Shown here piece after piece: positions 44,871 through 49,332 of a stretch of 64,000 nt of DNA. Source of the stretch: Acidobacteriota bacterium (GTDB lineage: Bacteria; Acidobacteriota; Aminicenantia; Aminicenantales; Saccharicenantaceae); NCBI GenBank assembly GCA_029569255.1, contig JAKQUO010000028.1, forward strand, positions 1,335 to 65,334. Reading direction: 5' to 3'. A program made the position numbers and the translations under genes. The notes beneath the pieces were generated by a model that ran no database searches, was not told the DNA's origin, and was given only the letters and a program-made list of their open reading frames with translations. Position 1 is the stretch's first letter. The number at the start of each line of letters is the position of its first letter.

Positions 44871-46208
44871 ATGAAAAGAGCGGCGGCGATCGTCCTTCTC
44901 CTTGCCCTTGCCGCCGGCCGTGTTCCGGCCGCGGGTCCCCTGGCGGCCGCTCCGGACCCTCTGGGGTTCGCCGTCGAGGACCTTCGGCTGAGCAACGGGC
45001 TCCGGGTCCTGCTCTCGGCGGACCACCGTCTGCCGCTGGTCACGGTCGCGGTCGGCTACGGCGCCGGGACCGTCCGCGAGCGGCCCGGCCAGGAAGGCCT
45101 GGCCTATCTCCTGGAGAACCTGATGTTCCAGGGCTCGGAGAACGTCGGGCCGCTCCAGCACATCGGCTTCGTCCAGAAGGTCGGCGGCGAGCTCAACGCG
45201 ACCACGGGCGTCGACAAGTCCCTCTACTATCAGACCCTGCCCTCGAACCACCTGGCCCTGGCCCTGTGGCTCGAGTCGGACCGGATGAGGTCCCTGGCCA
45301 TCACCGCCGCCTCCCTCGAACGGACCAAGGCCGAGGTCGCGGAGGAGCACCTCGGCCGGCTCCGGTCCGATCCCTATCTCGAAGGCTCCATCCGGATGGA
45401 CGAGCTCATCTTCCCCGATTTCCCCTACGGCCATCCCCTGATCGGGACCGGGGAGGCGCTGGGGCGCCTCACCGAGGCCGACGTCAGGGGCTTCGCCCGC
45501 GCGTTCTATGTCCCGAACAACGCCGTGCTGGCCGTCGTGGGCGACTTCGATCCCGCCCGGACGAGGGAGCTTGTGGCCCGGTATTTCGAGACCATCCCGC
45601 CCGGGGGGCCCGTCCCCGAGCCCCCTCGGCCGGCCTTCAAGCGGGAGAGCGACGTCGTCACGCGCTCGGCCAGGGTCCCCGTGCCGGGCGCCGGCTTCCA
45701 CATGGGGTTCCGGTTCTATCCGCTCCAGCCCGGCGAGATCAACATCCTCAGGGTCCTCGAGGTCCTGCTCTTCGAAGGCGAGACGTCGCGCGTGAGGAAC
45801 CGGCTCCTCCGGCGGGACCGGACCTCCACCCATCTGAGCGCCGTCCTGGACGAGCGCCTCTCCGCCGCCGCCCTCAAGGTCTTCAGCCTGAACACGAACG
45901 AGATCATGGTCGAGCGGGCCGAGCGGGCCGTCCTGGCCGAGATCGACAAGCTGCGGACCTCGGCCGTCTCGCCCGACGAGCTGACCAAGGCCAAGCGCCG
46001 CTACCGGCTCAAGTATCTCGACCGGCTGTCGACGCTGCGGGGCCGGGCCCTCTATCTCATCGACGCCGCCTTCGCCGGCGCGGACATGGCCGCGCTGGGC
46101 CGGGACCTCGACGCGGTCAAGGACCTCGAGCCGGCGGCCGTTCTCGCCTTCGTCGCCAGGTATTTCACGCCTCAGTACAGGGTCGTCCTGGAGCTGGAGT
46201 ACCAATGA
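44871..46208 (+). CDS. Secreted M16-family (pitrilysin/insulinase-like) protein with degenerate zinc site
   Basis: Signal peptide. The position of HxxEH reads AYLLEN (H->Y, H->N) within an otherwise typical M16 N-terminal block ([19 protein letters not shown]...[12 protein letters not shown]). Confidence 0.8.
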
Positions 46209-47653
46209 GAGGCGTCGTCGCCGTCGCGGCCCTGGCCGTCCGGCTGGCCTTGTCCCCGGCCTTCGGCCAGGAGCGCTTCCGGCGGACCCCTCCCCTGCCC
46301 GACGCCCGGCCCGTCGAGCTCAAACTCCCGGAGGTCCGGACCGCCGTGCTGGAGAACGGGCTGACGGTGGCCACCGCCGTCCAGCCCGGGGCGCTCACGG
46401 CCACCCTGATGCTCGTCGTCAAGGCGGGCGAGGCCGATTCGCCGCCGGACCGGCCCGGCCTGGCCGGGTTGACGGCGCGGATGATCGGCAAGGGGACAAA
46501 GAGGCTCTCGGCCGAGTATTTCGAGAACATGGTCGAAGCGATGGGGACGGAGCTCTCCGCCGAGACCCGCATGGACTACACGACGGTGTCCCTGCGCGTC
46601 CTCCCCGAGCAGCTGGACCGGGGCATCTTCGCCCTGAGGCTGATGGTCCTCGAGGCCTCGTTCTCCGAGCGCGAGCTGGCCGCCGTCCGAAGGGAGGCCT
46701 TCTGGGGGCTTGTGGACCGGATGAAAGACCCCGAGGCCCTGGCCCGGAGGCATCTCTTCCGCGTCCTCTTCGAGGGGCATCCGTACCGGACGGCGGCCTA
46801 CGCCGAGGACGTCATCAAGTTCATCGCCGCCAAGGACGTCGCCGCCTTCTACGAGGCCTTCTACCGGCCGGCCAACGCCGCCGTGATCGTCTTCGGGGCC
46901 ATCGACGGCGAGACGGCGGCCCGCCGGGTGGCCGGCCACTTCGGCGGCTGGCAGGGCGCCTTTCCCGGTCGGGTCGCCGTGCCGCCGCCATCCCCCAACG
47001 CCCGCGACCGCGTCTGCTTCGTCGAGGCGCCCAACGCCCCCTCGGCCGCCGTGGTCGCAGGCAACGTCGTCATGGACGCCTCCGGCCCGGACGTCTTCCC
47101 CTTCCTCGTCCTCATGCAGGTCCTGGGCGGGACGACGCGGAGCCGCCTGTTCATGAGCCTGCGCGAGACCAAGGGCTACGCCTTCTACGCGTTCAGCGAG
47201 GCCGCGTTCTTCCGCTCGTGCGGCGCCTATTGGGCCCGGGCCCTCGCCCCGCCCGAGACGATCGTCGCCGCGGCCCGGGAGATCCTGCGCGAGATCGAGG
47301 CCCTGGCCGCGGCGCCGGCCGGGCCCGCCGAGATCGAGGAGGGCAAGTCCTTTCTCATCGGCAACCTGCCCGCCCGGTTCGAGTCCCCCGAGGGGTTCGC
47401 CGAGGGCCTGGCCCGCCGCGTCGCCCTGGGCCTCGACGAGGCCCAGTGGGACAAAGGGCCGGAACGGGTCAAGCTGGTCAACGCGGACACGGCCGGGGCC
47501 GCCGCCCGCAGGCACCTGGCCGCCCGTCCGATCGTCGTCATCGCGGGCCGGCCGGAATGGCTCGGCCCGGTGGCCGAGGCGTTCGCCTCGGTCGAGGTCT
47601 ACGACCCCGCCGGAACGCTCGTTCGAACGCTCGTCAAAGGAGAGAGGCAATGA
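46205..47653 (+). CDS. Secreted M16-family protein, non-catalytic type (no HxxEH)
   Basis: Signal peptide [23 protein letters not shown]. The motif position reads GLAGLTARMIGKGTK. ATGA overlap with the upstream M16 gene. Confidence 0.8.
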   Translation: MRGVVAVAALAVRLALSPAFGQERFRRTPPLPDARPVELKLPEVRTAVLENGLTVATAVQPGALTATLMLVVKAGEADSPPDRPGLAGLTARMIGKGTKRLSAEYFENMVEAMGTELSAETRMDYTTVSLRVLPEQLDRGIFALRLMVLEASFSERELAAVRREAFWGLVDRMKDPEALARRHLFRVLFEGHPYRTAAYAEDVIKFIAAKDVAAFYEAFYRPANAAVIVFGAIDGETAARRVAGHFGGWQGAFPGRVAVPPPSPNARDRVCFVEAPNAPSAAVVAGNVVMDASGPDVFPFLVLMQVLGGTTRSRLFMSLRETKGYAFYAFSEAAFFRSCGAYWARALAPPETIVAAAREILREIEALAAAPAGPAEIEEGKSFLIGNLPARFESPEGFAEGLARRVALGLDEAQWDKGPERVKLVNADTAGAAARRHLAARPIVVIAGRPEWLGPVAEAFASVEVYDPAGTLVRTLVKGERQ

Positions 47654-49332
47654 AGATCATCGAATGCGTCCCCAATTTCAGCGAAGGCCGCGACAAAGAG
47701 AAGATCGGGGCCATCCGAGGCGAGATCGAGGCCGTCCCCGGCGTCAAGCTCCTCGATGTGGACCCGGGGGACTCGACCAACCGGACCGTCGTGACCTTCA
47801 TCGGAACGCCGGAGGCGGTGAAAGAGGCCGCCTTCCGGGCCATCGCCAAGGCCGCCGAGGTCATCGACATGCGCGGGCACAAGGGCGCCCACAGCCGGAT
47901 CGGGGCCACCGACGTCTGCCCGTTCGTCCCCGTCTCGGGCGTGACCATGGACGATTGCGTCAAGCTGGCCGGCGAGCTCGGCGCCCGCGTCGCCTCCGAG
48001 CTGGGGATCCCCGTCTACCTCTACGAGGCGGCGGCCCGCAAGCCGGAGCGCCGCAACCTGGCCGTCGTCCGGGCCGGCGAGTACGAAGGCCTGCCCGAGA
48101 AGCTCAAGGACCCCCGCTGGGCGCCCGATTTCGGCAAGCCCGTCTTCAACCCCAAGTCCGGGGCGACCGTCGTCGGCGCCCGGGAGTTCCTCATCGCCTA
48201 CAACATCAACCTGAACACCCGGGACCGCAAGCTGGCCCACGAGATCGCCCTGAGCCTGCGAGAGAGCGGCCGGGCCAAGCGGGACAAGGACGGCAACGTC
48301 GTCAAGGACGCCCGGGGCCGGACGGTCAAGGTCCCCGGCCGGTTCAAGGAGGTCAAGGCCGTCGGCTGGTACGTCGAGGACTACGGCGTCGCCCAGGTCT
48401 CCGTCAACTTCACCAACTACAAGGTGACGCCCGTCCACGTCGTCTTCGACGAGGCCCGGCGCCTGGCCGGAAAGCTCGGCCTCCGGGTGACCGGCAGCGA
48501 GCTCGTCGGCCTCATCCCCCTGGAGGCCTTGCTCGCGGCCGGCCGCCATTACCTCGAGAAACAGGGCAAGAGCCCGGGCGTGCCGGAGGAGGAGCTCGTC
48601 CGCATCGCGGTCAAGTCGCTCGGGCTGGCCGACGTCGCCCCCTTCGATCCGGAGAAGAAGATCATCGAATATCAGTTCCGCGACGGCGGGGCCCGCCTCG
48701 TCCGGATGTCCCTGGCCCGTTTCGCCGACGAGCTGTCCATGGATTCGCCGACGCCCGGCGGCGGCAGCGTCGCCGCTCTCTGCGGCAGCCTGTCCGCGGC
48801 CCTGGCGGCCATGGTGGCCAACCTGACGGTCGGCAAGAAGGAGTACCAGGGCGTTTGGGCGGACATGGCCGAGACGGCCGTCCGGGCCCAGCGGCTCAAG
48901 AGCGCCCTCCTCGAGGCCGTGGACCGGGACACGAAGGCGTTCGACAAGGTCATGGACGCCCTCCGCCTGCCCAAGACCACGCCGGAGCAGGCCGAGGAGA
49001 AGGACCGGGCCGTCGAGGCGGCGAACAAGGAGGCCACGCTCGTCCCGCTCGAGGTCCTTGAGAAGGCCGTCGAGGCGGTGACCCTGGCCCGGCGGGCGGC
49101 GGCCGAGGGCAACAAGAACTCCGTGAGCGACGCCGGAGTGGCCGGGTTGGCCGGGCAGGCCGCGGGCGACGGGGCCTACTACAACGTCCTCATCAACCTG
49201 GCCGGGATCAAGGACCGGGCGTTCGCCGCCCGGGTCAGGCGCGACGCGGACCGGGCCAAGAGGGCGCTCGACAGGGAAGGCAAGGCCGTCAGGGACATCC
49301 TGGCCCGGGCCTTGAGAGCCTCGAAGGGCTGA
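47650..49332 (+). CDS. ftcD: Bifunctional glutamate formimidoyltransferase / formimidoyl-THF cyclodeaminase (FtcD, fused form)
   Basis: N-terminal formiminotransferase domain (MKIIECVPNFSEGRD...). C-terminal cyclodeaminase domain (SPTPGGGSVAALCGSLSAAL...). ATGA overlap with the M16 gene. Confidence 0.8.
   Translation: MKIIECVPNFSEGRDKEKIGAIRGEIEAVPGVKLLDVDPGDSTNRTVVTFIGTPEAVKEAAFRAIAKAAEVIDMRGHKGAHSRIGATDVCPFVPVSGVTMDDCVKLAGELGARVASELGIPVYLYEAAARKPERRNLAVVRAGEYEGLPEKLKDPRWAPDFGKPVFNPKSGATVVGAREFLIAYNINLNTRDRKLAHEIALSLRESGRAKRDKDGNVVKDARGRTVKVPGRFKEVKAVGWYVEDYGVAQVSVNFTNYKVTPVHVVFDEARRLAGKLGLRVTGSELVGLIPLEALLAAGRHYLEKQGKSPGVPEEELVRIAVKSLGLADVAPFDPEKKIIEYQFRDGGARLVRMSLARFADELSMDSPTPGGGSVAALCGSLSAALAAMVANLTVGKKEYQGVWADMAETAVRAQRLKSALLEAVDRDTKAFDKVMDALRLPKTTPEQAEEKDRAVEAANKEATLVPLEVLEKAVEAVTLARRAAAEGNKNSVSDAGVAGLAGQAAGDGAYYNVLINLAGIKDRAFAARVRRDADRAKRALDREGKAVRDILARALRASKG

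Follow-up and report, generated by a model that had tools for sequence, protein, structure and literature searches.

A stretch of 64,000 nucleotides from an Acidobacteriota bacterium of the class Aminicenantia (contig JAKQUO010000028.1 of assembly GCA_029569255.1, positions 1,335 to 65,334; referred to here as the window) has a G+C content of ~70%, and its best protein matches are found in metagenome-assembled genomes (MAGs) of Candidatus Aminicenantes. The window carries a head-to-tail trio of genes, all on the plus strand, which encode two subunits of an M16B-type peptidase pair (M16a and M16b) and a fused formimidoyltransferase-cyclodeaminase (FtcD). Neither M16 subunit has the HxxEH zinc motif, and with moderate confidence we interpret the two proteins as a class-wide, selectively maintained and exported M16B pseudopeptidase pair that is co-expressed with FtcD. 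A sequence-only reading of this DNA had already proposed a pseudopeptidase pair, and that proposal is supported by two lines of evidence: the loss of zinc ligands across the clade and a catalytic tyrosine of the partner subunit that is no longer conserved. The three genes are:

44871..46208, plus strand: M16a, 445 aa, an M16B subunit of the catalytic type without both zinc-binding histidines
46205..47653, plus strand: M16b, 482 aa, an M16B subunit of the non-catalytic partner type
47650..49332, plus strand: ftcD, 560 aa, a fused formimidoyltransferase-cyclodeaminase without a signal peptide

Alignment of M16a to the solved chains 4nnz_A and 3amj_C placed its motif helix on the segment G(L/V)(S/A)HALEHMMFKG(S/T). 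In this register, the first His is replaced by Tyr79 (TAT), Glu82 is retained, and the second His is replaced by Asn83 (AAC), exactly as the sequence-only reading had described for this subunit (both histidines lost, Glu kept). Its corresponding claim for M16b also stood, with G88, A91 and R92 occupying the positions of H, E and H. The residues concerned lie at the following positions:

45105..45119, plus strand: degenerate zinc motif YLLEN of M16a at the HxxEH position (codons TAT CTC CTG GAG AAC)
45345..45347, plus strand: E159, the retained distal zinc-ligand Glu of M16a, mapped via E131 of 3amj_C
46466..46480, plus strand: GLTAR at the HxxEH position of M16b, in which G88, A91 and R92 replace H, E and H

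The replacement residues of M16b are themselves conserved: T90 and A91 each occur in 116 of the 117 clade members, and R92 in 107. None of the 120 orthologues of either subunit has HxxEH. An intact HxxEH in a different register had been named beforehand as the observation that could overturn the assignment; a new alignment with solved M16B structures and with 69 canonical relatives revealed no such motif in any register, and a search of the window found no other M16 gene that could supply one. The distal ligand behaves differently. M16a retains this Glu, ~76 residues past the motif, as E159, and the position is E in 111 of 128 clade members and in all 69 canonical relatives. The possibility raised earlier that every zinc ligand had gone is thus borne out for the two histidines and not for the distal Glu of M16a, so that two of the three ligands are lost.

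Three other residues of M16a were considered and set aside. The invariant H97 was rejected as a rebuilt metal ligand, since it is also present in 68 of the 69 canonical relatives. H160 was rejected as a new ligand of the whole clade, since the His is confined to the main clade: deep branches have I, Q or L at this position, and canonical relatives K or R. Finally, the assignment of T152 as a lost second “structural” Glu (E124 in 3amj_C) was withdrawn, as the canonical subfamily has Gln at this position (69/69).

The loss of the zinc site extends well beyond the window. Across the main clade of M16a (n = 128), position 79 is Y in 109 sequences and F in 17, position 82 is E in 126, and position 83 is N in 125; the canonical relatives have H, E and H at these positions without exception (69/69 each). 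All of the closest 120 M16a homologues (54–100% identity) carry (Y/F/L/V)xxEN at the motif position, and HxxEH is absent from their entire sequences. We searched exhaustively with HMMER over 1.84 billion cluster representatives (50%-identity clusters), and the nearest representatives, at 33–49% identity, read YxxEN (eight times), YxxET, YxxES, YxxQH and FxxQH. HxxEH returned only past these nearest representatives, in 109 of 150 among the matches listed. Sixteen metagenome loci were likewise zinc-less and included the deeper variants NxxEN, TxxEN, LxxQY, HxxEN and YxxEK, and in the deep branches the distal Glu is in some cases replaced by D, A or V.

In a neighbour-joining tree, the zinc-less sequences formed one clade, apart from all HxxEH sequences, and every named member of the clade or its clusters belonged either to Aminicenantes (including Candidatus Saccharicenans) or to an unclassified Acidobacteriota MAG. 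Because the loss recurs in hundreds of independent assemblies, it cannot reflect chance or sequencing error. Judged from these alignments, it is a single-origin trait of the whole Aminicenantes lineage and not an accident of one genome. Moreover, the catalytic residues that changed are not the same from one sub-lineage to the next: the motif E has become Q, N has become K, Y, T or S, and the distal Glu has become D, A or V. Such varied replacement would be expected after selection for catalysis has ceased.

The partner subunit provides a further indication. In nearly all M16 enzymes, a conserved Arg/Tyr pair contributed by the opposite half of the clam-shell stabilises the transition state (PMC12731061). 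In canonical partner subunits, this pair appears as R-x6-Y in the C-terminal domain and is fully conserved (R 61/61, Y 61/61). M16b departs from it as follows:

47162..47185, plus strand: R/Y-pair position of M16b, with R320 kept and Phe at position 327

Among the Aminicenantes orthologues of M16b (n = 117), R320 is present in every sequence, whereas Tyr occupies position 327 in only 59, the remainder including T (35), S (11) and F (7). The window protein, with R320 but F327, lacks the full R/Y pair. Relaxation of the partner Tyr alongside ligand loss in the “active” subunit is what would be predicted for a dead protease, and by this comparison it is a second, independent sign of lost catalysis.

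Both proteins are otherwise recognisable members of the M16 fold family, with the expected order of domains. M16a matches PF00675 (Peptidase_M16; 1.2e-14) and then PF05193 (Peptidase_M16_C; 1.4e-22), M16b matches the same two families (4.5e-14 and 2.9e-21), and all four hits exceed the gathering thresholds. The closest solved chains to M16a are 4nnz_A (7.8e-43) and the active subunit 3amj_C (4.5e-32), and M16b aligns with both Sphingomonas subunits, including the inactive 3amj_B (1.1e-18). The 120 M16b orthologues span 57–100% identity. An AlphaFold2 model of M16a, built from a 50-sequence input, reached a mean predicted local distance difference test (pLDDT) score of 69.5 and a predicted template modelling (pTM) score of 0.70; Foldseek searches with this model returned M16B chains at the top (4nnz, 5euf, 3ami and 7v4y, with a probability of 1.00), followed by bc1 core proteins and mitochondrial processing peptidase (MPP). 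M16a and its 69 canonical relatives, which come from Acidobacteriota, Gemmatimonadota, Actinomycetota and others, belong to one subfamily with a shared signature that includes H...GGxxN(A/G)xT...LWLESDRM. In the Aminicenantes proteins the scaffold motifs of this signature are invariant and the ligands differ.

In its architecture, the pair resembles the bacterial M16B heterodimers that are also its best sequence and fold matches: Sph2681/Sph2682 of Sphingomonas (3amj), TTHA1264/TTHA1265 of Thermus (7v4y) and PA0371/PA0372 of Pseudomonas (4nnz). In each case, two adjacent genes encode proteins of ~45–50 kDa with Peptidase_M16 and M16_C domains, the active-type gene lying upstream and the partner-type gene, with the R of the R/Y pair, downstream. 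The two half-size subunits of the window (445 and 482 aa) are likewise encoded by adjacent genes, and the same active-type/partner-type gene order was found in more than 60 canonical Acidobacteriota and Gemmatimonadota loci. The described heterodimers differ, however, in that one subunit keeps HxxEH...E and the R/Y pair of its partner never varies, whereas the window pair has YxxEN and a partner Tyr that is not conserved; canonical loci also lack ftcD, unlike the window locus. By these comparisons, M16a and M16b stay within the M16 fold family and depart from active M16B enzymes at HxxEH and at the Tyr of the R/Y pair.

Some observations weigh against the pseudopeptidase interpretation. Within the main clade, the general base E82 (126/128) and N83 (125/128) are almost always kept and E159 (111/128) mostly so, and the site could still do chemistry. 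In bovine bc1 core 1 the motif reads YxxEH, and the core proteins nevertheless retain a latent processing activity. The M16a model is poor at the very region of interest: since pLDDT falls below 50 for residues 63–142, which include the motif, the model is unusable for active-site geometry, and the shape of the remnant site cannot be read from it. On the side of the operon, the association with FtcD amounts phylogenetically to a single event within a synteny block of ~17 kb, as detailed below.

The first of these points invites the view that the pair is still an active peptidase or hydrolase, with Glu82 as the base and a metal on Glu159, Asn83 and Tyr79, or with a metal-independent mechanism. 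That an Asn is specifically conserved, and not a random assortment of residues, suggests a selected role, and the cleft motifs around it are invariant. The deep branches speak against such a site, as they replace E82 (YxxQH, FxxQH, LxxQY), N83 (K/Y/T/S) and E159 (D/A/V); because each candidate residue is replaced there, no alternative ligand set is conserved clade-wide. H160 is gone from the same branches, H97 is family-wide and not specific to the clade, and the catalytic Tyr of the partner is relaxed. In addition, mutagenesis of pitrilysin, insulin-degrading enzyme and MPP has established that losing either His abolishes both zinc binding and activity. We consider a persisting enzyme of this kind unlikely.

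The genes nevertheless appear to be maintained. M16a reading frames measure 433–458 aa throughout, down to ~33% identity, and a 50-sequence alignment of M16a (54–84% identity) contains 61 invariant columns, which are densest around the former active site. Intact, length-conserved open reading frames (ORFs) are present in more than 200 independent clusters. By this pattern of conservation, M16a is under purifying selection outside the ligand positions. Decay into pseudogenes, or an artefact of annotation or assembly, might be suspected from two facts: M16a diverges faster than its neighbours (at locus L088, 61% identity for M16a as compared with 83% for FtcD, 88% for AhcY and 85% for PepD), and M16b is truncated at one locus, L081. 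The intact frames in more than 200 clusters, the many invariant columns, and the conserved signal peptides and gene overlaps effectively refute this explanation, to which we attach almost no weight.

Both M16 proteins begin with a putative export signal:

44871..44936, plus strand: signal-peptide-like N-terminus of M16a (n/h/c-region heuristic; cleavage site approximate)
46205..46267, plus strand: signal-peptide-like N-terminus of M16b (n/h/c-region heuristic), followed by the conserved mature N-terminus QERFRRTPPLP

The heuristic combined Kyte-Doolittle hydropathy with charge and called for a basic n-region, an h-region of at least 10 hydrophobic residues and a c-region of small residues; its results are indicative only. 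By this measure, M16a and M16b both carry the layout of a Sec signal, in agreement with the earlier description of signal peptides on both proteins, and FtcD does not. The layout recurs in 115 of 128 M16a and 98 of 117 M16b orthologues, where the arrangement is kept and the sequence is not. M16a and M16b are thus predicted to be exported.

QERFRRTPPLP, the mature N-terminus of M16b, varies hardly at all within the clade and is also found in canonical partners. We rejected it as a clade-specific tethered ligand, since its presence in canonical partners makes it a subfamily-wide motif; we know of no described role for it. In several Pyrinomonadaceae (L006, L011, L023, L027 and others), the canonical inactive partner begins directly at (E/D)FR(R/K)xxPxPL and has no signal peptide, and other relatives do have one. 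Judged by its N-termini, this M16 subfamily therefore seems to include cytoplasmic as well as exported versions.

The third gene of the trio is a full-length FtcD. Its product matches FTCD_N (5e-74), FTCD (7e-59) and FTCD_C (2e-61), scores 380.8 bits against NCBIfam TIGR02024 (cut-off 221), and aligns colinearly with rat FTCD (1tt9) across 531 residues that include both domains and the linker (E 1.3e-139). The sequence-only reading had called this protein eukaryote-like and fused. The fusion is confirmed over its full length; the “eukaryote-like” label rests solely on the end-to-end match to rat FTCD, with which the protein shares the same three Pfam domains. The window protein differs from the rat enzyme in being bacterial, in forming an operon with M16 genes and in a 16-residue insertion rich in Lys, Arg and Asp, RDKDGNVVKDARGRTVKV, at residues ~209–226 of the formimidoyltransferase domain (window 48274–48327). 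FtcD converts formiminoglutamate and tetrahydrofolate (THF) into glutamate, 5,10-methenyl-THF and ammonia.

The trio is tightly packed, and both ATGA overlaps claimed earlier were verified at their coordinates:

46205..46208, plus strand: ATGA stop/start overlap of M16a and M16b (M16a stop TGA at 46206–46208, M16b ATG at 46205; accaATGAgag)
47650..47653, plus strand: ATGA stop/start overlap of M16b and ftcD (M16b stop at 47651–47653, FtcD ATG at 47650; ggcaATGAaga)
44744..44870, no strand assigned: divergent intergenic region between ahcY (minus strand) and M16a (plus strand), 127 bp, relatively AT-rich

An AGGAG Shine-Dalgarno-like element lies 9–13 nt 5' of the M16b/ftcD overlap. The M16a/M16b overlap is kept in all eight main-clade loci examined, L081 included, and in the deep-branch locus L087, and the M16b/ftcD overlap is kept in all seven main-clade loci that carry ftcD; in deep branches, the latter junction is a 14-nt overlap or a 15-nt gap. 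With this arrangement, the M16 pair is probably translationally coupled with ftcD. A database entry that joins M16b to an FTCD_N domain (P0335, 581 aa) probably reflects a frameshift that let the gene call run on through the ATGA overlap, not a true fusion.

From its position, the intergenic region 44744..44870 presumably carries the promoter of the M16a-M16b-ftcD operon. The sole sigma-70-like match of the promoter scan in this region lies on the minus strand (44812–44784) and points at ahcY, the divergent adenosylhomocysteinase gene (43487–44743, minus strand; TIGR00936 equivalog above cut-off). The promoter and terminator scan found no convincing terminator within the operon, and an Rfam scan of positions 40000–54000, the intergenic region included, gave zero matches.

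We next asked how widely ftcD accompanies the M16 pair. The triad of two zinc-less M16 genes and ftcD occurs in the three Aminicenantes genomes that the genome scan found (L001–L003), in L082, L083, L084 and L085, and in the deep branches L086 (M16a identity 36%) and L087 (34%). Co-conservation of the triad elsewhere, on which the earlier proposal had been staked, was evident: among zinc-less metagenome loci whose sequence continues for at least 2.2 kb downstream, ftcD follows M16b in 13 of 13, compared with 0 of 34 canonical HxxEH metagenome loci with room downstream and 0 of 77 canonical genome loci. The exception is L081 (JBGLNG010000001.1; 9335–11584), where M16b is truncated to 326 aa and followed by an elongation factor G fragment without its N-terminus and an M24 peptidase, with no ftcD; this arrangement looks like a rearrangement or an assembly error.

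It is also possible, with a modest share of the probability, that the protease is dead and that ftcD shares its operon for historical reasons alone, through a gene order that was fixed once in the Aminicenantes ancestor and carries no functional meaning. The whole neighbourhood of the triad, ~17 kb, is syntenic across the class (aspS/asnS, a MiaB-like gene, pgpA, cinA, ligT, plsY, gpsA, a TPR gene, ahcY, the triad, a metal ABC transporter, pepD and ridA). Because of this synteny and the single origin of the zinc-less clade, the FtcD association counts as one evolutionary event, and the contrast of 13/13 with 0/34 must be read accordingly. A search of the 64-kb window for hutH, hutU and hutI found none of them, which is again in keeping with a link by descent. 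The junctions, however, stay tight over 34–100% identity, with 4-nt overlaps or gaps of at most 15 nt. In L087, metK, a Macro-domain gene and galK have been inserted around the triad, and the triad itself is contiguous; this is mild evidence for selection on the unit and suggests that co-expression is what is selected. Given the synteny of the whole neighbourhood, the apparent functional link between the M16 pair and FtcD may be inherited gene order instead.

Under the pseudopeptidase interpretation, the M16 pair descends from the widespread combination of an active subunit and an R/Y-pair partner, and the zinc-dependent machinery has been lost in Aminicenantes. The partner subunit never had HxxEH, and the transition-state Tyr is not conserved there any more. 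Intact frames, the cleft scaffold (MFQGSxN, GGxLNAxT, LWLESDRM and the partner Arg) and the putative export signals have been retained. M16a and M16b would then most likely assemble in the cell envelope as a clam-shell that binds extended peptides without cleaving them, acting as a binder, holdase or scaffold. Co-transcription with cytoplasmic ftcD would mean that the three proteins are made together, plausibly as part of a programme of peptide or amino-acid catabolism. Heterodimer formation, peptide binding without hydrolysis and a physiological link to FtcD are all predictions from the gene sequences and their arrangement.

The closest neighbours 3' of the trio are also conserved across the lineage. 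A metal ABC transporter of the Zn/Mn type (49335–51881, minus strand) is encoded convergently to ftcD and ends 3 bp from the ftcD stop codon; its components are an ABC-3 permease, an ATPase and a binding protein of the ZnuA family. Throughout Aminicenantes, the transporter keeps its synteny with the zinc-less M16 genes, and its binding protein scores below every NCBIfam equivalog cut-off. Beyond the transporter lie an Xaa-His (beta-Ala-His) dipeptidase gene (51918–53372, plus strand; TIGR01893, 555 bits, cut-off 344), whose synteny is conserved 2.6 kb 3' of ftcD, and a RidA gene (53369–53830). His freed by the dipeptidase could supply a pathway that ends at FtcD, although the window encodes no hut genes.

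A more far-reaching proposal can be formulated from this neighbourhood. Aminicenantes might have evolved, as a bacterial parallel to the mitochondrial core proteins and independently of them, an exported, zinc-free M16B clam-shell whose ligand binding is tied to cytoplasmic His/folate one-carbon catabolism. It might, for instance, capture or sense His-containing or glutamyl peptides whose degradation supplies FtcD, an Xaa-His dipeptidase gene being conserved 2.6 kb away; alternatively, the conserved YxxEN...E site might carry out new, non-zinc chemistry. We regard this proposal as speculative and rather improbable.

The comparison with eukaryotic pseudopeptidases has limits of its own. Like the bc1 core 1 and core 2 proteins (1be3, 1sqb) and alpha-MPP, which have been retained for structural or binding roles, the window pair combines an M16B fold with a lost zinc site; M16a and M16b match bc1 core proteins and MPP significantly in sequence and fold, though less strongly. 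The bc1 core proteins have been described as pseudopeptidases (PMC11266112), and proteins of the bc1 core/alpha-MPP type carry a glycine-rich loop in place of the R/Y pair (PMC12731061). They are, however, eukaryotic, and the core proteins reside in a membrane respiratory complex, whereas the window pair is bacterial, carries signal peptides and belongs to a different M16B subfamily; no bc1 genes were seen in the window annotation. Zinc-site loss in the window pair is, on this comparison, independent of that in the bc1 core proteins, and we treat the resemblance as an analogy only.

In the literature, bacterial M16B enzymes are described as active/inactive pairs or homodimers, and the M16 pseudopeptidases named are alpha-MPP and the bc1 core proteins (PMC11266112, PMC12731061). 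These two recent reviews mention no bacterial M16B pair that is zinc-less in both subunits, and no publication about such pairs, or about M16 proteins of Aminicenantes, came up in our literature search. M16 pseudopeptidases have so far been described mainly in eukaryotes, and the bacterial M16B pairs described to date always keep one active subunit. A zinc-less bacterial pair would therefore represent an independent natural experiment, held across a class-level lineage to ~33% identity, and could show how the M16 clam-shell is used without catalysis; its strict co-occurrence with ftcD offers a concrete handle on function. There is also a practical consequence for annotation: public records name these MAG proteins “zinc protease”, “pitrilysin family” or “M16 family metallopeptidase”, and such labels overstate the proteolytic repertoire inferred for Aminicenantes.

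The remainder of the window has a gene content like that of a generalist anaerobe, with an amino-acid permease, M1, M20 and M24 peptidases, hydantoinase/oxoprolinase A and B subunits, and glycogen genes. Taken broadly, it has a loose theme of peptide and amino-acid catabolism together with folate and methyl metabolism, which provides no mechanistic tie between the M16 pair and FtcD. A corrinoid cluster on the plus strand (2992–7831) comprises a RACo-type activase (2992–4776), a homocysteine S-methyltransferase-family protein (4773–5663), a B12-binding corrinoid protein (5660–6313) and an MttB-family methyltransferase (6359–7831), the last scoring 364 bits against TIGR02369, below the cut-off of 525. 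In composition, the cluster resembles a non-pyrrolysine quaternary-amine:corrinoid:THF methyl-transfer system, which would be another folate-linked pathway.

A split purH is located at 23834–25649 on the minus strand, where a protein with only the AICARFT domain (359 aa) is encoded beside an archaeal-type IMP cyclohydrolase-like protein (PF07826), without a fused PurH. Finally, three ORFs whose coding signal is strong (G+C content at third codon positions 0.93–0.95) have no Pfam match at E ≤ 1e-5: 60738–62216 (plus strand, 492 aa), 9414–10280 (minus strand, 288 aa) and 12455–12907 (minus strand, 150 aa).

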